Assembly: GCA_964478715.1 (NCBI GenBank)
Contig: CAYZIY010000012.1
Span: forward strand, 1-52,931
DNA length: 52,931 nucleotides
Source of the DNA: an uncultured Planctomycetales bacterium
GTDB lineage: Bacteria; Omnitrophota; Gorgyraeia; Zapsychrales; JBDRMG01
Direction: 5' to 3'
Shown here: positions 2,814 through 11,090 of the stretch, piece after piece
Layout of the letters: every line of letters begins with the position of its first letter
How positions within the stretch are numbered: the stretch's first letter is position 1
Notes under the pieces: generated by a model
Databases searched by the model: none
What the model saw: only the letters and a program-made list of their open reading frames with translations
Told to the model about the DNA's origin: nothing
Translations under genes and position numbers: made by a program

Positions 2814-3320
2814 ATGCTCGAATATCTGGACTACATCCAAAGATGCTCAAGAATCTGCCCAAGAACTTACTGGTGCGAGTTCCCATACTACACAGTCATA
2901 AACGGCCAAAAACAACACTTCCGCCTAGGCTACCGCCCCCAAGACCTCGCAGACATCGAAACCATTGAACAGAAGACATGGAAAAAGCACATCGCCCACC
3001 TAAACCGCCTCGAAAATTTCCCGCTGGACAAAGCCGAATACTATCTGCGTCTCAAAGAAGCGCACGGCGTGAGTTCTGTCAGAAGCCTATCAAAAATCAC
3101 AGGCGAAGACTGGTCATACATAGCCAAAGTACTCAGGACGATTGATCTAGCCGAGCCAGTAAAAGAATACCTGCGGGAAAACAAAGAAAACCATGCGGTG
3201 ATTAGATTTTTTAACCTCAAAAGACTCGTAGACATCGTAAAGCAAGGAGAAGAAAGGTTTCAATTGAGATGTTTCAGGGAATTCTTGGAGATATTGGAGT
3301 CTTCAAAATATAATTATTGA
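2814..3320 (+). CDS. hypothetical protein with ParB/KorB-like HTH segment
   Basis: SVRSLSKITGEDWSYIAKVLRTIDLAEPVKEYL resembles the ParB HTH followed by the 'LP..v.e.l' region. The start codon is uncertain, and the 5' part lies in a visibly GC-richer patch. Confidence 0.45.
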   Translation: MLEYLDYIQRCSRICPRTYWCEFPYYTVINGQKQHFRLGYRPQDLADIETIEQKTWKKHIAHLNRLENFPLDKAEYYLRLKEAHGVSSVRSLSKITGEDWSYIAKVLRTIDLAEPVKEYLRENKENHAVIRFFNLKRLVDIVKQGEERFQLRCFREFLEILESSKYNY

Positions 3321-3391
3321 CAAATCTTTATGTATGGTATATATTCCCAATATGGGAATAAATGCAAAAGTAATATGCGATACAGGAAAAT

Positions 3392-3679
3392 ATGAAATTA
3401 TTGGGCAAAAATATATTACAGAATTTCAAACAGCGGCATGCCGACGCTCGAGCACAAATTGATTCTTGGGAAGCGGAAGTTGAGGATGCCCAATGGGGTA
3501 CGCCGCATGTTCTAAAGAGTAGATATCCGAAGGCGAGTCTTATTGGAGATCAATTGGTAGTTTTCAATATTTGTGGAAATAAATATAGGTTGCTAGTACA
3601 GGTTAGCTATAAAAACGGGATAGTCTTTGCTAAGAAAATTGGTACACATAAAGAATATGATAATTGGAATATAGAGTAG
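3392..3679 (+). CDS. higB: type II toxin HigB-family mRNA interferase
   Basis: 95 aa. The sequence DAR..I..W...V..A.W..P..lk..Y..AS..g...VFNI.GNKYRL matches the HigB_toxin family as I recall it. The stop lies 8 nt before the antitoxin start. Confidence 0.85.
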   Translation: MKLLGKNILQNFKQRHADARAQIDSWEAEVEDAQWGTPHVLKSRYPKASLIGDQLVVFNICGNKYRLLVQVSYKNGIVFAKKIGTHKEYDNWNIE

Positions 3680-3687
3680 GGGTAAAA

Positions 3688-4899
3688 ATGCGTAAAATCA
3701 AAGTTATAAAAACTGAACAAGATTATCAAGACGCATTAATTTTACTTGAGGAATTAATGAGTTGTGATCCGGATCCTGAATCAGTTGAAGGAGAGCAACT
3801 CAGCCTTCTTAGCACCCTCATTCAAGATTACGAAGCTCGAGTATTTCCAAAGACTTTTCCTAATCCTATTGATGCTATTAAATTCAGAATAGAGCAAGCT
3901 GGTCTTAAACCAGTAGATTTGATTCCTTATATTGGAAGTAGAAGTAGAGTTTCAGAAATTCTCTCAGGGAAAAGACAATTAACTCTTGATATGGTTAGAG
4001 CATTATCTGATGGACTAGGAATTCCTGCTGAAGTATTGATAAAGAAGCCAGATTTAGAGCAAGAATCAGAATATCAGAATTGGGATAACCGGTTGGTTTC
4101 AGAAATGGAGGCACGTGGTTATTTTGGCAAAAATTCAAAAAAACATAGCAAAGCTGATCTTCTTGCAAATTTCTTTTCAATAATTGGTTCTCCTGCGCAA
4201 CTCGTTGGCATGGCAAGAAAATCTAGCTATAGATCTTCACCGTTAAGCGATAAACATGCTTTGGCTGCTTGGGCTGTATGTGTAATTAAAAAAGCTAAGA
4301 ACATTAAAGTTCAAAAAAAATATCGACATGGAACTATTAATCTTAAATTTATGCAGGAGTTAGCAAAGTTAAGCATGAAAGAAAATAGTCCAATATTGGC
4401 TCAAGAGTATTTAAGAAAATATGGAATTATTTTGGTTATAGAGCCACATTTTTCTAAAACTTATCTTGATGGTGCTACCATTTTAATTGACAAAGATAAT
4501 CCAGTTATTGGTCTTACACTTAGGTATGACCGATTAGATAATTTTTGGTTTACCTTAATGCATGAATTAGCACATATTGCTAAACATTATGATAGCGACG
4601 TTAGCCTCTTTTTTGATGAGCTTGAGGGAATAAAAAATATTGATATTGATGAAAAGGAAGAAGAAGCCGATGCTTTGGCAGAAGAAGCACTCCTTCCGAA
4701 AGCAAAATGGGAAGTTAGTCCAGCTAAGCTAATTCCTTCTTCTATGGCTGCAAATAGTCTAGCCCAAGAACTAGGAGTTCATGTAGCGATTATCGCAGGT
4801 CAAATTAGACATAAAGGCAATAAATATGTTTATTTGAATAAAATTGTAAATGAGGCAAAAGTAAGAAAGTATTTTCCTGATGAAAAGTGGAAGAAATAA
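3688..4899 (+). CDS. HigA-type HTH antitoxin fused to ImmA/IrrE (COG2856) zinc metallopeptidase
   Basis: The N-terminus is a HigA/COG5499-like HTH (SRSRVSEILSGKRQLTLDMVRALSDGLGIP). The C-terminus carries HEXXH (FTLMHELAHIAKHY), typical of ImmA/IrrE. ATG 3688 was chosen as the start (MRKIKVIK...). Confidence 0.8.
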   Translation: MRKIKVIKTEQDYQDALILLEELMSCDPDPESVEGEQLSLLSTLIQDYEARVFPKTFPNPIDAIKFRIEQAGLKPVDLIPYIGSRSRVSEILSGKRQLTLDMVRALSDGLGIPAEVLIKKPDLEQESEYQNWDNRLVSEMEARGYFGKNSKKHSKADLLANFFSIIGSPAQLVGMARKSSYRSSPLSDKHALAAWAVCVIKKAKNIKVQKKYRHGTINLKFMQELAKLSMKENSPILAQEYLRKYGIILVIEPHFSKTYLDGATILIDKDNPVIGLTLRYDRLDNFWFTLMHELAHIAKHYDSDVSLFFDELEGIKNIDIDEKEEEADALAEEALLPKAKWEVSPAKLIPSSMAANSLAQELGVHVAIIAGQIRHKGNKYVYLNKIVNEAKVRKYFPDEKWKK

Positions 4900-6040
4900 T
4901 ACATCTAATTCAAAACATTATGTGCCGATACTAAAGTGGAAGCGTGCTGAGCAAGGCGCTCTGGAAGCAATGGTAGATAAATATAAGGGGTTAATATCAC
5001 CTGTTATAGAGCTTGTTATGCCGAAACCAAAATCATTGTTCAAAGATAAAAAAGGGACAATTAAAAAAAGTCGGGAAGAATTATTCCAAGAATTAATTGC
5101 CACTTTTCGAACAAAAAGAATTCCTGAAATTCCAGAAGAGATAATGAAATCTTGGGAAAAAAAACCAGCATATATAGATTTTAGTCTGCTATACACTGTT
5201 GATTTAAAGGTGGAAAGCATAAAAAGAATATTTGTAAAAGCGACGGAAAGCGGTTTAAATTTAACACCTATATTGAATCTGAGCGACAATGATGAAGTAA
5301 AAAAAGCAATCAAACAAATATTTAAAAAATACACTAATAAAATATGTTTTCGGATTGTTTCTAGTGAGTTAGAAAATATAAGCAGTCTTAATAGCCAATT
5401 AGATGGTCTCCTTCAATATTTTAATGCGGCCCAAAGGGATATTGATTTATTAATTGATCTTAAAGAGGCCAAGAGTGATGATGGCGGTTATTATCGAAGA
5501 TATTTTAACTATAGTCAAGGAATTAAGAATTTGATTAGCTGGCGAAATTTTATTTTTGCGTGTGGGGCGTTTCCAGGGAATTTATCTGAATGCTCGATTG
5601 ATGAACCAACGTATATTCCTAGAACGGAATGGATAAATTGGATGAAAATCAGGAAATCAGAGGCTAAAAGAGTCCCAATTTTTGCAGATTATGCAGTTAG
5701 AAACCCGATCTATAATGAAACACTGCAATTTTATTCTTCTAGCGCTAGTATTAAATATACGCTTGAAAGAGATTGGATTGTTTTAAGGGGTAAGGCAAGA
5801 AAGTTTGAAGATTATTTGGCTCATGCATCATTGTTAGTAAAAGAGAAGTTTTTTTTGGGAGAAAATTTTAGTGAAGGAGATAGGTTTATTGTTGAGAAGG
5901 CACGCTATTTCCCAGAATATATGCAGAAGAAAATTGAAAAGAAAAAATTGGATGGCACAGGGAATACTGCAATGTGGCTTGAAGCGTTTATAAATCACCA
6001 TTTAACGCTAACGGCAAATCAGCTCGCCAATCTCCCCTAG
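4880..6040 (+). CDS. Beta-protein family (T4 'beta protein' / sce7725-like) protein
   Basis: The N-terminal YVPILKWKRAEQGALEAM motif is recalled as the hallmark of Pfam Beta_protein. The start overlaps the upstream gene by 20 nt. Confidence 0.65.
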   Translation: MKSGRNNTSNSKHYVPILKWKRAEQGALEAMVDKYKGLISPVIELVMPKPKSLFKDKKGTIKKSREELFQELIATFRTKRIPEIPEEIMKSWEKKPAYIDFSLLYTVDLKVESIKRIFVKATESGLNLTPILNLSDNDEVKKAIKQIFKKYTNKICFRIVSSELENISSLNSQLDGLLQYFNAAQRDIDLLIDLKEAKSDDGGYYRRYFNYSQGIKNLISWRNFIFACGAFPGNLSECSIDEPTYIPRTEWINWMKIRKSEAKRVPIFADYAVRNPIYNETLQFYSSSASIKYTLERDWIVLRGKARKFEDYLAHASLLVKEKFFLGENFSEGDRFIVEKARYFPEYMQKKIEKKKLDGTGNTAMWLEAFINHHLTLTANQLANLP

Positions 6041-6632
6041 AAACAAGAAGAGCATGTCGTACTTGTTCTTTGAGATCATCCAAGTTTAATACATTAGCAA
6101 GTCTTTGATAAATAATTTCACGTGGTTTTGAACGTATCCCCTTTGCCTTATCCTGCTTTTCTAGAATTTGCAGTGCTTCTTGTCTCCACAACAATCGTGC
6201 TACGGAGATTCCTATTTGATTTGGATTATCTTCAGCGTTTCGAATTGTTTGAAAATATATTTTATGGTTAGTATCAATTTTTGCAACAGTGATACCCCAC
6301 CAGTCAGGGATAATATTTATGGCATGATATAAATGATGTTTTCCTACAACCAGAGTTAGCTTATCAAAAACCTTGTTGAATTCGTTCATTTGTTCCGGTA
6401 GTCGATCGAGTGTGTCGCTGTCGCTTTTGATTTCATATCCATGCATAACGCCATTAATGACAGCGATATCTATTCTTGCAGTCCCGTGTTTTACGCCCAA
6501 TTCTTCAAAAATTTCGGCGGGGCGTTGGCTTTGTCTGCGATAGTTTTCCAAATCTTTTCTTAAGGCTTCTCGGAGAGCTATGCGTATGTTTTTATCGTTT
6601 GTATAAAAAATGGCATTTTTAATATTTATCAT
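5988..6632 (-). CDS. sce7726-family protein (predicted restriction-endonuclease-like fold)
   Basis: FEELGVKHGTARIDIAVINGVMHGYEIKSDSDTLDRLPEQ matches my memory of the sce7726 family signature. It converges on and overlaps the Beta-protein gene. Confidence 0.65.
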   Translation of the reverse strand: MINIKNAIFYTNDKNIRIALREALRKDLENYRRQSQRPAEIFEELGVKHGTARIDIAVINGVMHGYEIKSDSDTLDRLPEQMNEFNKVFDKLTLVVGKHHLYHAINIIPDWWGITVAKIDTNHKIYFQTIRNAEDNPNQIGISVARLLWRQEALQILEKQDKAKGIRSKPREIIYQRLANVLNLDDLKEQVRHALLVSRGDWRADLPLALNGDL

Positions 6633-6795
6633 AATAAGAATATTTTAACATATTTCTATAGCAAAAAAATATTTTTATGTTTTGTTTAGCGCATTCATTT
6701 AGTGCAAGCTTTCAATTTGAAATTGATAGAGAACTGGGGAACGGTATAAGTTATTGTTATCGGGGGCAGATATAAACGTTACTAAAATCATAAAA

Positions 6796-6823
6796 TTGAC
6801 ATAATTTCGTTTTGGTGTAGAAT
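6796..6823 (+). promoter_or_regulatory. sigma70-like promoter for the HTH/SNF2/R-M operon
   Basis: TTGACA (6796-6801), a 16-nt spacer, then TAGAAT (6818-6823). It lies ~70 nt upstream of the ATG at 6894. Confidence 0.45.
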
Positions 6824-6893: not shown

Positions 6894-7073
6894 ATGGAAA
6901 ATATAAGCCAATATCTCACAGTAAGGGAAGTCTCTGAAAAACTAGGCGTCACTGAAAAGTGGGTTCGCGATCTTATTCAGGCGAAGGAATTGAAAGCTGT
7001 AAAGATTGGAAAGTGGAGGATCAAACCCCAAGACCTTCAAACTTTCATAGACAGCAGATATAACAAAAAGTAA
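6894..7073 (+). CDS. small excisionase/MerR-type helix-turn-helix DNA-binding protein (59 aa; absent from the ORF track, presumably too short)
   Basis: My own translation is MENISQYLTVREVSEKLGVTEKWVRDLIQAKELKAVKIGKWRIKPQDLQTFIDSRYNKK. This is the classic HTH_17 pattern (LGV....V..li..g.l.a.kiG..wri). Confidence 0.7.
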   Translation: MENISQYLTVREVSEKLGVTEKWVRDLIQAKELKAVKIGKWRIKPQDLQTFIDSRYNKK

Positions 7074-7083
7074 GGGATAGTGT

Positions 7084-9408
7084 GTGGATCAAATATTAGA
7101 TAACAGAAAAAAAGGTAAAGTTGGAGATACGTTAAACGATCTTATCGTAGCAGGATCAAAACTGTCGTTCATTTCTTCATGCTTTACAATATATGCTTTT
7201 CAGGAGCTTAAAAATACGCTTAAAAGATGTGATAAACTTCGCTTCCTTTTCATTGAGCCTACCTTTATACGCAACAAACCATCAGAATCAAGAGAATATT
7301 ATATCGGTCGTTCAGAGAGGGAGAAAAGTCTTTCTGGCAGTGAATTTGAATTGAGACTTAAGAATGATTTGAATCAGTCCAGCATTGCCCGGGAATGCGC
7401 GGCATGGGTTAAGGAAAAGACTGAAATGCGATCTCTCGTGGATTCAAGTGTTGCATCAGTAAAAATTTATCACGGTGAGGATTCCAACGGAGAGCAGTTC
7501 GCGATTCAAGGCAATTCAGATTTTACCGCTGAGGGACTTGGGTTTACTCCTGCAACAAAACGAAACGTAAATACGCTTACAAAAAATCAAGAAACGACAC
7601 AAGGGCTATTGTCTTTTTTTGATGAGATATGGGATAACGATGAGCTTGTTGAAGATGTGAAAGATGAAGTTCTGTCTCGCATTTTAAGCCTCTATAAAGA
7701 AAACCCGCCAGAGTTCATGTATTTCGTCACGCTTTATAATATCTTTAAAGATTATTTAGAGAACCTCGACGAAGAAAGCATTATAAAATCTCGGACAGGT
7801 TTTAAAAATACACTTGTTTGGAACAAGCTTTATAAATTTCAGAAAGACGGCGTGCTGGGAGCAATCGACAAGCTGGAACGCTATAACGGTTGCATAATCG
7901 CCGATAGTGTAGGTCTTGGTAAAACGTTTGAAGCATTGGCTGTTATCAAATACTACGAATTACGAAATCACCGTGTACTCGTTTTATGTCCGAAAAAACT
8001 ACGGGAAAACTGGACAGTTTATACCATCAACGATAAGCGCAATACTTTAGCAGATGATCGTTTTGGATATGATGTTCTTAACCACACTGATTTAAGCCGA
8101 TATACAGGGGCTTCAGGTGAAATCAATCTTGAGACTTTAAATTGGAGCAACTACGACCTTATCGTTATTGATGAGTCGCATAATTTTAGAAACAACGATC
8201 CACGCAAAGACAGAGAGACACGTTACAGCCGTTTAATGAACCAGATCATCAAGCAGGGAGTTAAAACGAAAGTACTTATGCTTTCGGCAACGCCTGTAAA
8301 TAACCGCATGATGGATCTTAAAAATCAGGTGTTCTTTATTACGGAAGGAAACGATACAGCTTTTGATGATGATGGCATTTCCAGTATTGAGCAAACACTT
8401 AAGAAAGCGCAAACAATTTTTAATAGATGGACTGCATTACCTGAAGAAAAACGTACACTTGATAGCTTTTTGAATATGGTCAATTTTGATTATTTTAAAT
8501 TACTCGATACGATTACTATTGCCCGCTCAAGAAAACACATCGAGAAATATTACAATATTGCGGAAGTTGGAAAATTCCCGGATCGACTTAAGCCTATTAA
8601 TGTGAAGTCGGATATTGACCTGCAATCTGAATTCCCACCTTTAGAAGAGGTTAACAAAACTATCAGGCGGTTAACATTAGGCGCATATTCTCCTCTTAAA
8701 TATGTGCGGATGGATAAGCAGGAAGAATACAGTGAAAAATATGACATGGAAGTGCAGGGGGGAAGGTCGCGTTTCAGGCAGATAGATCGTGAAACGAGCT
8801 TGATTCATCTTATGCGTGTAAATCTTTTAAAGCGTATGGAAAGCTCAATATTTTCTTTTGGGATCACGGTGAATAATGTCCTTTCACAAATCAACGTGTT
8901 GCTTGAGAAAATCGAAAAAGGAGATTCTTTTATAGATGAATCTTTGGATATTCGGGATGTGAATATTGAGGATGACGAATTGCAGGACAAGCTGATCGGC
9001 AATAAAGTTAAAGTTCTCTTGCAGGATATTGATGTTGTGCGATGGAAGCAGGATTTAGAATATGACAAATCATTGTTGGAACAATTACTTGATGAATCTG
9101 AAAAAGTCTCTGCTAAAAGAGACGCAAAATTGGAAGACCTCAAGCGATTAATTAGTCGTAAGATGCAGTCTCCAATAAACAGGGATAATAAGAAAATTTT
9201 AATTTTTTCTGCCTTTGCTGATACCGCACAATATCTTTATGATAATTTGGCAGAGTGGGCAAAGAATGAATTTAATCTTTATTCCGCGCTTGTCACAGGT
9301 TCAGGCAGCAATAAGACAACCCTTCCAATAAAACAAAAAGATTTAGGTGCGATTCTTTCCTATTTTTCTCCGATATCCAAAGAAAAAAAATACCATATAT
9401 CCCGATGA
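7084..9408 (+). CDS. SNF2-family helicase, N-terminal fragment (frameshifted gene)
   Basis: SNF2 motifs are present: I (ADSVGLGKTFEALA), II (VIDESHNFRN) and III (MLSATPVNN). GTG start. The reading frame is lost at the A8 run 9383-9390. Confidence 0.85.
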   Translation: MDQILDNRKKGKVGDTLNDLIVAGSKLSFISSCFTIYAFQELKNTLKRCDKLRFLFIEPTFIRNKPSESREYYIGRSEREKSLSGSEFELRLKNDLNQSSIARECAAWVKEKTEMRSLVDSSVASVKIYHGEDSNGEQFAIQGNSDFTAEGLGFTPATKRNVNTLTKNQETTQGLLSFFDEIWDNDELVEDVKDEVLSRILSLYKENPPEFMYFVTLYNIFKDYLENLDEESIIKSRTGFKNTLVWNKLYKFQKDGVLGAIDKLERYNGCIIADSVGLGKTFEALAVIKYYELRNHRVLVLCPKKLRENWTVYTINDKRNTLADDRFGYDVLNHTDLSRYTGASGEINLETLNWSNYDLIVIDESHNFRNNDPRKDRETRYSRLMNQIIKQGVKTKVLMLSATPVNNRMMDLKNQVFFITEGNDTAFDDDGISSIEQTLKKAQTIFNRWTALPEEKRTLDSFLNMVNFDYFKLLDTITIARSRKHIEKYYNIAEVGKFPDRLKPINVKSDIDLQSEFPPLEEVNKTIRRLTLGAYSPLKYVRMDKQEEYSEKYDMEVQGGRSRFRQIDRETSLIHLMRVNLLKRMESSIFSFGITVNNVLSQINVLLEKIEKGDSFIDESLDIRDVNIEDDELQDKLIGNKVKVLLQDIDVVRWKQDLEYDKSLLEQLLDESEKVSAKRDAKLEDLKRLISRKMQSPINRDNKKILIFSAFADTAQYLYDNLAEWAKNEFNLYSALVTGSGSNKTTLPIKQKDLGAILSYFSPISKEKKYHISR

Positions 9409-10324
9409 TGGATTATCAATTGATATTCTTATCGGGACAGACTGTATTTCCGAAGGGCAAAATCTTCAAGATTGCGATTATGTTGTTAATTATGATATTC
9501 ATTGGAATCCGGTTCGAATTATTCAGCGTTTTGGAAGAATTGATCGTATAGGATCACGCAATGAATTAGTCCAGTTAGTTAATTTTTGGCCTAATTTAGA
9601 ACTTGATGAATATATCAATCTTGAAGCAAGAGTGACGGGACGTATGGTTCTTTTAGATGTATCCGCTACAGGCGAAGAAAATATTATTGATACGGAAAAA
9701 CAGAGCATGAATGATTTGGAATATCGCCGGAATCAGCTGAAACAGTTGCAAGAAGAAGTGGTAGATTTGGAAGAAATGTCTGGCGGTGTTTCTATTACAG
9801 ACCTTACGTTTAATGATTTCCGTATGGACTTAATTGAATATATGCGCATCAATAAAGAAGCCCTTGAGAAAGCCGCCTGTGGGATGTATGCGATAGCCCG
9901 AAGTGACAACAAGGATGATATTCCTGAGGGTGTCGTATTCTGTTTAAGGCATATTACAAGAGGGCGTGTTCCTGATGAGCATAACGCATTTTATCCGTAT
10001 TATTTGGTTTATGCAAAAAAGGATGGATTAATTTTACACTCATTTTTAGCGACAAAGAAAATATTGGATTTATATAAAAAGCTTTGCCTTGGGCACTCAG
10101 AAGTATTGGTTGATCTGGTTGACGCGTTTAATCAAAAAACAGATGATGGAAGAAAGATGCACAATTTTTCAGGACTGTTAGAGCATGCAATAACCAATAT
10201 TATTGGGAAAAAAGATGAAAAGGGCGTCGAGAGTCTTTTTTCAAAAGGGGGAACAACATTGTTGGATAATTCCTATCAGGGAAAAGATGATTTTGAGCTG
10301 ATATCTTTTTTAATCATTAAGTAG
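9347..10324 (+). CDS. SNF2-family helicase, C-terminal fragment (frameshifted gene; true coding continuation begins near 9384)
   Basis: Helicase C-terminal motifs IV-VI are present: ILIGTDCISEGQNLQDCDYVVNYDIHWNPVRIIQRFGRIDRIGS. Confidence 0.85.
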   Translation: MRFFPIFLRYPKKKNTIYPDDGLSIDILIGTDCISEGQNLQDCDYVVNYDIHWNPVRIIQRFGRIDRIGSRNELVQLVNFWPNLELDEYINLEARVTGRMVLLDVSATGEENIIDTEKQSMNDLEYRRNQLKQLQEEVVDLEEMSGGVSITDLTFNDFRMDLIEYMRINKEALEKAACGMYAIARSDNKDDIPEGVVFCLRHITRGRVPDEHNAFYPYYLVYAKKDGLILHSFLATKKILDLYKKLCLGHSEVLVDLVDAFNQKTDDGRKMHNFSGLLEHAITNIIGKKDEKGVESLFSKGGTTLLDNSYQGKDDFELISFLIIK

Positions 10325-10331
10325 AGGTGGC

Positions 10332-11090
10332 ATGAGAATACACGACTTCTTAGACGCAGTTGGTTTTCCTGATAGTGGGCGTATTGATAAGAAGATATTC
10401 AAGAAGGCTGTTTATGAAAATGCGGGACTATTTAAAAAACAGATAGAAGTTATAAAGAATGAAATAAATGATATTAGGTGGCTATATGTGTTAAAGCCGG
10501 GCACAATTAATATCCCGGTGTTAAAGAATGAAGATTTTGATTATGAAGAGATTCAAATTATAGGCATTACCCTGAAAGATGATAAAAAGAAGGATGTGGT
10601 TGCAAGCATTATTCAAAAGTGCATTCCGTATCCAGTTATTTTGCTCATAGAACATGAACAGAAGCTGGCTGTTTCTGTTGCCTCGAAACGAATCAATAAA
10701 GCAGATGTGTCGAAGAGCGTGATTGATGAGGAATACATTACGAATTGGATCTCAGCTTGTGCCGGTGATGCGTTTATTCAAAGCTTGAAGCCAGAGAAAC
10801 TTTCTTTTAAGAGTCTGTATGAGTTTTACGAGGATGTTATTGACCGGGTAAAGCTTTTTCTGTTGTGCGATTACAAGGATGATTTCAACTATGAGAAGAA
10901 AAAGGTTACAGCGCGATTATTCGCGGTATATCAAAAGATAAAAGAACTTGAAGAGAGTAAGCGTCAGTTGCAAAGGCAGATAAAAAAAGAGACTGACTTT
11001 GCCAAAAAGGTAAAGATGAATGTTGATATAAAGAAAACAAACAGTCTTATTGCCAACAACATAAAAAAACTGGGAAAAAGTTATGTTTAA
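10332..11090 (+). CDS. DUF4391 domain protein
   Basis: The IRWLYVLKPGTINI...IPYPVILLIEHEQK pattern and the position between an SNF2 helicase and a methyltransferase fit the usual DUF4391 context as I recall it. Confidence 0.7.
   Translation: MRIHDFLDAVGFPDSGRIDKKIFKKAVYENAGLFKKQIEVIKNEINDIRWLYVLKPGTINIPVLKNEDFDYEEIQIIGITLKDDKKKDVVASIIQKCIPYPVILLIEHEQKLAVSVASKRINKADVSKSVIDEEYITNWISACAGDAFIQSLKPEKLSFKSLYEFYEDVIDRVKLFLLCDYKDDFNYEKKKVTARLFAVYQKIKELEESKRQLQRQIKKETDFAKKVKMNVDIKKTNSLIANNIKKLGKSYV

Follow-up and report, generated by a model that had tools for sequence, protein, structure and literature searches.

Four genes lie between positions 3392 and 6632 of the window, by which we mean the whole 52,931-nt stretch of DNA that was analyzed. 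Gene A (3392–3679, plus strand, 95 aa) is HigB-like; gene B (3688–4899, plus strand, 403 aa counted from the ATG) joins a HigA-type HTH to an M78 peptidase; gene C (4880–6040, plus strand, 386 aa) belongs to the Beta family; and gene D (5988–6632, minus strand, 214 aa) belongs to the sce7726/P4 cII family. A and B are separated by 8 nt, B and C overlap by 20 nt, and the convergent C and D overlap by 53 nt. A ribosome-binding site, AGGGG, is located 5′ of the B start codon. None of the four genes is interrupted, and conservation extends to their catalytic-type residues. The sequence-only reading made earlier had given the same coordinates for the four open reading frames, with the 8-nt gap, the 20-nt overlap, and the convergent fourth gene, and its domain calls (HigB, HigA-HTH/M78, Beta, and sce7726) were upheld by profile searches against Pfam and NCBIfam. 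Neighboring genes of the window (PDC-S01, SNF2/DISARM-like, and DUF4391) form a defense island context.

Protein A matches the Pfam HigB_toxin model with an E-value of 3e-26 and the PADLOC model PD-Lambda-2_A (PDLC03981) with 5e-38 over positions 1 to 93 of 94, and it is homologous to E. coli HigB of solved structure (5ifg and 5ycl; E = 1e-4). Across 73 sequences, W35, F58, Y65, R66, G84, H86, and Y89 show no variation, and three of these (R66, H86, and Y89) are common to the active E. coli HigB. We regard A as a homolog of HigB/RelE-type mRNA interferases and as a predicted RNase; the invariance of R66, H86, and Y89 argues for a working enzyme. Judged from its sequence, the locus appears to have the features of a type II HigBA system, namely, HigB homology with catalytic-type residues, a HigA HTH partner, and an operator.

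In protein B, a HigA-type Xre HTH domain (approximately residues 60 to 120) is followed by an ImmA/IrrE M78 metallopeptidase domain (approximately residues 248 to 368), which contains the HELAH motif (residues 292 to 296, encoded by nucleotides 4561–4575). The two domains are recognized by the Pfam models HTH_3 (2.5e-5) and Peptidase_M78 (1.5e-8), the N terminus matches the solved HigA 5ifg_B (1.7e-13), and the protein matches PADLOC PD-Lambda-2_B (PDLC03982) with 6.4e-146 over positions 1 to 399 of 402. H292, E293, and H296 are invariant in a 20-sequence alignment. There are at least 4901 B homologs at E ≤ 1e-10, and among the 120 matches listed, every homolog is 401 to 413 aa long and query coverage is 98 to 100%. 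The absence of a frame break in the fusion, as had been claimed from the letters, is thus genuine: full-length homologs of the same size with invariant HExxH residues rule out a frameshift artifact. B also weakly matches capP (3e-6, 25 bits) and, at no more than 23 bits, RmrA models, in the peptidase region only.

Protein C and P4 beta match the same Pfam model, Beta_protein, with E-values of 1e-53 and 4e-56, respectively. Against PADLOC, C matches PD-Lambda-2_C (PDLC03984) with 1.5e-34 and the "beta" model weakly, with 9e-6. Searches of PDB sequences with the C and D profiles yielded nothing useful. The AlphaFold model of C (pLDDT of 87) has TIM barrels as its Foldseek matches, with probabilities of ~1 and TM-scores of only 0.25 to 0.37; given these low TM-scores, we predict a TIM-barrel-like fold, extended at the C terminus by helices. 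Y14, E24, P41, D270, and H374 are invariant in 30 diverse beta proteins. The earlier suggestion of an sce7725/sce7726 pair does not survive for its first member. Neither C nor 9 of the 10 other Beta proteins scanned matched the sce7725 model, and the remaining one gave an N-terminal match of 16.5 bits against a cutoff of 60; an identity of sce7725 with beta is therefore unsupported by these profile scans of C and ten other Beta proteins.

D, by contrast, matches the NCBIfam model sce7726_fam with 163.6 bits (cutoff of 70). It also matches the PADLOC "cll" model (1.1e-24) and is homologous to P4 cII across a nuclease-type core (35% identity in BLASTP, E = 2e-13). The top Foldseek match of its AlphaFold model (pLDDT of 90) is 3dnx (E = 1.4e-5), together with SfsA and NucS, while XPF and Can2 rank lower. 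E44, D55, E67, and K69, encoded at approximately 6503–6426 of the minus strand, are invariant in 28 sequences. D is therefore predicted to be a PD-(D/E)xK nuclease, with a restriction-endonuclease-like fold and an E/D...D...(D/E)xK motif.

The tail-to-tail coding overlap of C and D (5988–6040, 53 nt) is present in all 71 loci in which it was measured; its length ranges from 26 to 92 nt and is 50 nt in 45 of them. The C-terminal tails of both proteins are conserved as protein. In the window, the D stop codon (5988–5990) is directly upstream of the codons for the I-N-H-H motif of C, with one base common to both, and H374 of this motif is invariant across beta proteins. No RNA-structure signal was detected in the overlap (z-scores of −0.33 to 0.45), and neither a terminator nor a stable RNA fold turned up when it was searched. 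Antisense or structure-based coupling of C and D is thus unsupported. Coding constraints could by themselves account for the constant overlap length, which provides no evidence for antisense control.

Upstream of A, a σ70-type promoter (TTGACA-17 nt-TATATT, 3317–3345, plus strand) agrees with the consensus at 11 of 12 positions, and most related loci have the layout TTGAC-N17-TATAxT ahead of A. The −10 box and the start site are overlapped by TTCCCAATATGGGAA (3344–3358, no strand assigned), a perfect palindrome in the window. Of 69 loci, 63 have the corresponding motif, TTCCCA-N3-TGGGAA with at most two mismatches, 32 to 60 nt 5′ of A, compared to 26 matches in 845 kb searched elsewhere. Related palindromes are found at the promoter of the E. 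coli PD-lambda-2-type locus and in AB-only forms, and the HTH-less GNAT variant has no such palindrome; the presence of the operator tracks that of the HTH. We presume that the palindrome is the binding site for the HigA-type HTH of B. The conserved promoter and this operator, which covers the start site, would then control A-B-C.

D has a separate conserved promoter, to judge from its sequence: an extended −10 element, TGTTAAAAT, located at 6642–6650 on the minus strand, 9 nt upstream of the ATG. Because of this short distance, the D mRNA is predicted to be leaderless or nearly so. Of 73 loci, 65 have TGnTAnnnT 5′ of D, compared to 13% of background windows, and 37 have the more stringent TGnTAnAAT, compared to 2.2 expected from shuffles. 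When the operator of the A promoter was sought near D, no consistent copy was found, and direct control of D by the HTH of B is therefore unsupported.

All 73 related loci with sufficient sequence have the layout A→B→C→ ←D, and they come from more than 10 phyla. The four genes are thus strictly coinherited in one fixed layout, far above chance, and the co-occurrence check proposed along with the sequence-only reading comes out in favor of co-conservation. The flanks of the related loci contain no conserved fifth gene and are otherwise unrelated. Of 70 loci, 11 have serine recombinases in the vicinity of the cassette, and its spread is sporadic, with D present in 5 of the 301 genomes of the phylum. 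We take the cassette to be horizontally mobile.

Three of the genes are those of the published PD-lambda-2 system and the fourth corresponds to cII of the satellite phage P4, a nuclease-like gene, so that the cassette is a widespread four-gene form rather than a new kind of system. We are confident, short of certainty, that it is a defense cassette of the PD-lambda-2 type in which a cII-type nuclease is a constant partner. In E. coli, PD-lambda-2 provides Abi-type defense against lambda-vir; toxicity is seen with B on its own and is neutralized by A, and C is required for defense (Vassallo et al. 2022, PMC9519451). That system shares with the window a HigB-like gene, a HigA-HTH::ImmA/IrrE peptidase gene, and a P4-beta-like gene in the same order, all of which reach the PADLOC models. 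PD-lambda-2 is, however, defined as three genes, to which the locus type of the window adds a constant gene for a cII-type nuclease. A single E. coli PD-lambda-2-type locus was examined; it is without cII, and its B is 40% identical to the window B. A convergent 317-aa gene at that locus was considered as a cII substitute and rejected: it has no similarity to cII and is a backbone gene also present in 29 genomes without the system. The defense role of the window cassette would thus be an extrapolation from an E. coli homolog that has a 40% identical B and no D. The three-gene form was found in 1 of 5426 complete E. coli genomes, which suggests that the form defining PD-lambda-2 is a rare, reduced one. 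Since this three-gene system defends without cII, D may be an accessory component or have a separate function and may not be universally required.

The second relative, gop-beta-cII of P4, defends against lambda and P1 and shows toxin-antitoxin–like behavior (Rousset et al. 2022, PMC9122126; Ghisotti 1990 cited there). Its trigger is orf184 (bioRxiv 10.1101/2023.04.06.535777). As in the window, a beta-family gene is followed by a convergent cII/sce7726-family gene, and D is homologous to P4 cII. The differences are that HigB and the HTH-peptidase stand in the window where P4 has gop; that P4 cII, at 264 aa, is longer than D; and that P4 beta and cII are separated by a 27-nt gap with a terminator instead of overlapping. 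The window genes match the PADLOC P4 models, beta and cll, weakly, and the gop model PDLC03001, which P4 Gop matches at 4.8e-70, was unmatched by the ten window proteins scanned.

The convergent pair extends beyond these two systems. Of 65 viral-contig loci that encode D, most contain Beta in convergent orientation but neither A nor B, and a conserved gene sought upstream of beta in the viral loci was not found, the neighbors being heterogeneous or absent. The same pair is present in a GNAT-M78-beta-cII variant in E. coli, and some phages have solo D genes. In the beta tree, betas of the ABCD clade are monophyletic (100/100) and nested among viral beta-cII betas, and no sister relationship links the window C with its E. 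coli counterpart. Because P4 has the convergent pair and distant viral D genes are paired with Beta in the absence of A and B, beta plus cII looks like the ancestral core, with HigB and the HTH-peptidase as an add-on.

Compared to E. coli K-12 HigBA (5ifg/5ycl), the window has the toxin gene first, HigB and HigA homology, and a promoter palindrome in common. It differs in that the antitoxin is fused to ~280 extra residues including the M78 peptidase and in that the toxin-antitoxin pair comes with two additional, obligatorily linked genes; in the E. coli relative of the cassette, moreover, the polarity of toxicity is reversed relative to HigBA, B being toxic and A rescuing. What Rosmerta, CapH/CapP, and ImmR/ImmA have in common with the window is a putative signal-responsive element built from an Xre-type HTH and an M78 peptidase, but the matches to Rosmerta and CapP are weak and restricted to the peptidase, and the partners (HigB, beta, and cII) differ. 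No match to RmrT was found in the window proteins, and the cassette falls outside Rosmerta. The sequence-only reading was therefore well founded in suspecting a defense system, while the Rosmerta logic on which it drew reduces to a shared HTH/M78 type, with RmrA matches of 23 bits or less. Overall, it was right on the genes, domains, and co-conservation and missed the PD-lambda-2 and beta/cII identities, so that it is partly supported.

Our best guess is that the cassette combines an autorepressed sensor/toxin module with a nuclease effector and acts by abortive infection. In an uninfected cell, A and B would be held in a mutually neutralizing complex, modeled on the E. coli system in which B is toxic and A rescues. 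The A-B complex, bound to the operator, would keep A-B-C expression low, and D would be made independently and remain inactive. Upon infection, a phage cue would be sensed by beta (C), the M78 domain, or both. The peptidase would then cut within the A-B complex, for example, in B's own linker, which would free the HigB RNase and derepress the operon, and beta would license the cII nuclease or cease to restrain it. The phage would be stopped by translation arrest together with DNA cleavage, at the expense of the host cell. The front ends attached to the beta-cII core, namely, HigB, GNAT, and Gop, would be interchangeable modules. As a whole, this step-by-step scheme is tentative, and we think it rather unlikely to be right throughout. 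Self-cleavage of a protease-bearing antitoxin with release of HigB had already been proposed; it is plausible in outline but conflicts with the sole experimental results for this family, those from E. coli, in which B is toxic and A neutralizes it. The companion proposal, that the Beta/sce7726 pair is a sensor or a second effector, agrees with the evidence.

Alternatively, A and B could serve solely for regulation, as a switch comparable to CapH/CapP or ImmR/ImmA: the HTH-peptidase would repress the operon and undergo self-cleavage when damage or infection is signaled, with beta and the cII nuclease as sole effectors and HigB as a co-repressor without a killing role. The conserved operator over the transcription start, which tracks the HTH, would suit such a switch, as would the weak matches of B to capP and RmrA; beta-cII pairs exist alone and can thus be self-sufficient, and the M78-beta-cII sub-core is found again behind another first gene, GNAT. 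That gene is, however, annotated as an enzyme, a poor fit to a mere co-repressor, and GNAT toxins occur in toxin-antitoxin systems. The invariant R66, H86, and Y89 of HigB, which argue for a working RNase, likewise speak against this possibility; D stands outside the operator-controlled promoter and has its own, and the three-gene E. coli form defends without cII. We consider the switch-only explanation unlikely.

Less likely still, the cassette could be a plain addiction or stabilization toxin-antitoxin module for a mobile island, with no role in phage defense and with D as a toxin or DNA-processing enzyme. A and the N terminus of B are bona fide homologs of HigB and HigA, one B homolog is named "plasmid stabilization protein" in its source, serine recombinases adjoin the cassette in some loci, and its distribution is sporadic. 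Against these observations stand the location of the cassette within a defense island and the measured phage protection by the E. coli homolog and by P4 gop-beta-cII (PMC9519451 and PMC9122126); addiction is, moreover, compatible with defense and the two are not mutually exclusive. As the only explanation, we regard addiction as improbable. Chance adjacency of D to PD-lambda-2 in this genome is barely credible: although the E. coli PD-lambda-2-type locus is without D, and D has its own promoter and occurs solo in some phages, this interpretation is already contradicted by the co-occurrence data, in which all 73 loci of sufficient length have the four genes, the 3′ ends overlap, and the surrounding DNA is otherwise unrelated, and the same convergent pair is found in P4 and in the GNAT variant.

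Returning to a PD-lambda-2-type cassette with a cII partner, a broader proposal follows the recurrence of the convergent pair. The 3′-overlapping beta/cII genes may be an autonomous and widespread two-gene immune core, and PD-lambda-2, gop-beta-cII, and GNAT-M78 one superfamily with interchangeable toxin/sensor front ends, in which beta, acting as an enzyme or as a sensor of a ligand, would license the nuclease and control the front-end toxin. We take this possibility seriously without quite leaning toward it. If it is true, beta would be a kind of enzyme or ligand sensor new to defense. PD-lambda-2 and gop-beta-cII are cataloged separately, yet they share a conserved beta-cII core, and defense-finder tools would under-call the system by leaving out D.

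All four ORFs described in the sequence-only reading were found intact in the window, with the positions and spacings it gave, and profile searches upheld each of its domain calls. Gene A (3392–3679, plus strand, 95 aa) matches Pfam HigB_toxin at 3e-26; gene B (3688–4899, plus strand, 403 aa counted from an ATG preceded by an AGGGG ribosome-binding site) carries HTH_3 and Peptidase_M78 domains; gene C (4880–6040, plus strand, 386 aa) matches Beta_protein at 1e-53; and gene D (5988–6632, minus strand, 214 aa) matches sce7726_fam with 163.6 bits, the cut-off being 70. An 8-nt gap separates A from B; B runs 20 nt into C, and the convergent C and D share their last 53 nt. The fusion of HTH and peptidase in B is real: a search at E ≤ 1e-10 yielded at least 4901 homologues, and the 120 listed are all 401 to 413 aa long and span 98 to 100% of the query, which rules out a frameshift artifact. 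The HExxH motif of B is invariant in a 20-sequence alignment.

A, B, and C match the components of PD-Lambda-2 in PADLOC at 5e-38, 6.4e-146, and 1.5e-34, respectively, and the locus agreed with PD-lambda-2 in every sequence-level test. D matches the PADLOC “cll” model, the cII component of P4 gop_beta_cll, at 1.1e-24; its N-terminal core aligns with P4 cII (35% identity, E = 2e-13), which is itself named “sce7726 family protein” in RefSeq. In P4, the gene order is gop(+), beta(+), cII(−), and the convergent beta/cII arrangement is that of C and D; the window locus has two of the three gop-beta-cII parts but lacks gop. The cassette is genuine, with all four genes intact, and represents a variant of known anti-phage systems. 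It is not Rosmerta, whose logic had been invoked for it, nor does it hold up as the suggested sce7725/sce7726 pair. PD-lambda-2 was discovered through functional selection in E. coli and confers Abi-type protection against lambda-vir; its B is toxic by itself and is rescued by A, while C is dispensable for neutralization but required for defense (PMC9519451). P4 gop-beta-cII defends against lambda and P1 (PMC9122126) and is triggered by the phage accessory gene orf184 (bioRxiv 10.1101/2023.04.06.535777). The literature searched handles the two systems separately, and we found no link in it of sce7726/cII to PD-lambda-2.

To assess conservation, ORFs of 79 loci from named genomes, retrieved with an alignment of B homologues, were searched with iterated HMMs of the window A, B, C, and D. 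The order A→B→C→ ←D was present in all 73 loci with enough sequence, with B identities lying between 50 and 87%. An overlap between C and D is present in every one of the 71 loci where it was measured; in 45 its length is exactly 50 nt. Hosts include Planctomycetota, many Patescibacteria lineages, Omnitrophota, Acidobacteriota, Bacteroidota, Chloroflexota, Gammaproteobacteria, Ignavibacteriota, Actinomycetota, and others; in the phylum of the window, D is rare (5 of 301 genomes). Since flanking genes are unrelated from locus to locus and the most frequent neighbor family is a serine recombinase (11/70 loci), the 3.3-kb unit moves on its own.

In the window, the cassette lies in a defense island. 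Just 5′ of it is an AAA_14 + DUF4143 ATPase (1365–2633; PADLOC candidate defense family PDC-S01, 9e-102). A 168-aa ORF (2814–3320) with a weak, sub-threshold ParB-type HTH match (E = 4e-4) directly precedes the cassette promoter; in other loci it is not a conserved neighbor of the cassette. Divergent from D is a 59-aa excisionase/MerR-type HTH_17 gene (6894–7073) with a weak MADS MAD1 match (3e-5); a strong promoter-like site of its own lies at 6796–6823. This gene is part of the neighboring operon, not of the cassette. An SNF2-type helicase (7084–10324; PADLOC C3a139 “HKD+Snf2,” DrmD-like) follows as two overlapping ORFs, 7084–9408 and 9347–10324, the split reflecting a frameshift or else phase variation of the gene. 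Located 3′ of it are DUF4391 (10332–11090) and then a 933-aa protein.

A putative A-B-C promoter, TTGACA-17-TATATT (3317–3345, plus strand), has 11 of 12 consensus positions, and its −10 box is overlapped by a perfect palindrome, TTCCCAATATGGGAA (3344–3358). With up to two mismatches, this palindrome occurs 32 to 60 nt 5′ of A in 63 of 69 loci, compared to 26 matches elsewhere in 845 kb. Related palindromes flank promoters of the E. coli PD-lambda-2–type locus and of forms with A and B only, while the HTH-less GNAT variant described below has none. There is good sequence evidence that A-B-C would be autoregulated through the HTH of B. No copy of the palindrome is found near D, where a conserved candidate extended −10 promoter, TGTTAAAAT (6650–6642, minus strand), lies 9 nt from the ATG. 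TGnTAnnnT is present at this gene in 65 of 73 loci versus 13% of background windows, and TGnTAnAAT in 37 of 73 versus 2.2 expected. No RNA structure was detectable in the C/D overlap region. The protein tails of C and D are both conserved, and in the window the D stop codon lies just 5′ of the codons for the I-N-H-H motif of C, with one base in common; this motif includes the invariant H374. The constant overlap length could follow from these features without antisense control.

The AlphaFold model of D (pLDDT 90) has solely restriction-endonuclease–like top Foldseek matches: 3dnx (1.4e-5), followed by SfsA and NucS; XPF and Can2 rank further down. The E...D...ExK motif of D (E44, D55, E67, and K69) is invariant in 28 sequences, and in all likelihood D acts as a PD-(D/E)xK nuclease. 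The C model (pLDDT 87) best matches TIM barrels (TrpA, AtzC, aldolases, and glycosidases) with a probability of ~1 and low TM-scores of 0.25 to 0.37. Among 30 diverse betas, Y14, E24, P41, D270, and H374 are invariant, and D100, D193, R248, Y271, Y293, and others are almost so; several conserved residues appear to be located at the C-terminal ends of predicted strands, the position of a TIM-barrel active site. A is homologous to the solved E. coli HigB, sharing R66, H86, and Y89 with that RNase (all invariant among A homologues), and the B N terminus is homologous to the solved HigA.

Distant D homologues (28 to 48% identity) on viral contigs are nearly always convergent with a Beta-family gene, overlapping it in most cases; these loci lack A and B, and the gene 5′ of beta is varied or missing. 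A few solo D genes occur within phage gene strings. In two IMG/VR contigs (L111, 2875–3315; L113, 3556–3996), a stand-alone 146-aa HExxH peptidase (CAHELGHSICH) lies directly 5′ of beta-cII, a minimal peptidase-beta-cII form without a toxin-like first gene. Among 5426 complete E. coli genomes, which also hold P4-type gop-beta-cII, one carries a PD-lambda-2–type A-B-C locus; its convergent 317-aa neighbor, considered as a cII substitute, is unrelated to cII and is present in 29 other, system-free genomes. Five carry GNAT→M78 peptidase (without HTH)→beta→ ←sce7726, as in the chromosomes NZ_CP068041 (L086, 3995–7107) and NZ_CP027447 (L087). This cassette is another front-end variant on the beta-cII core. 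Plasmid A-B pairs (38 to 40% identity) lack C and D. Four loci from Magnetococcales and Acidobacteriaceae (L077–L080) encode HigB and a short HigA-only protein (121 to 222 aa) akin to the B N terminus, without peptidase, beta, or cII; they look like plain two-gene HigBA relatives of the front end, and L077 retains a related palindrome, ATCCCA-N3-TGGGAT. In a maximum-likelihood tree, beta of the A-B-C-D clade is monophyletic (100/100) and nested among betas paired with D alone; C of the E. coli PD-lambda-2–type locus falls outside, at the end of a long branch. On the simplest interpretation, beta and cII are the ancestral pair, toxin/antitoxin-peptidase front ends joined later, and the E. coli three-gene form is reduced.

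In resting cells, the A-B complex would sit on the operator and keep the operon low, while D would be produced separately and kept inactive. Beta, the M78 domain, or both may detect an infection cue; the peptidase would then cut inside the A-B complex, setting HigB and additional beta free and licensing the nuclease, so that the infected cell stops growing or dies. In the chief rival model, A and B would be just a CapH/CapP-like switch, with beta-cII the sole effector. The cassette is of moderate interest, mainly since it points to beta-cII as a common core and to a testable effector.
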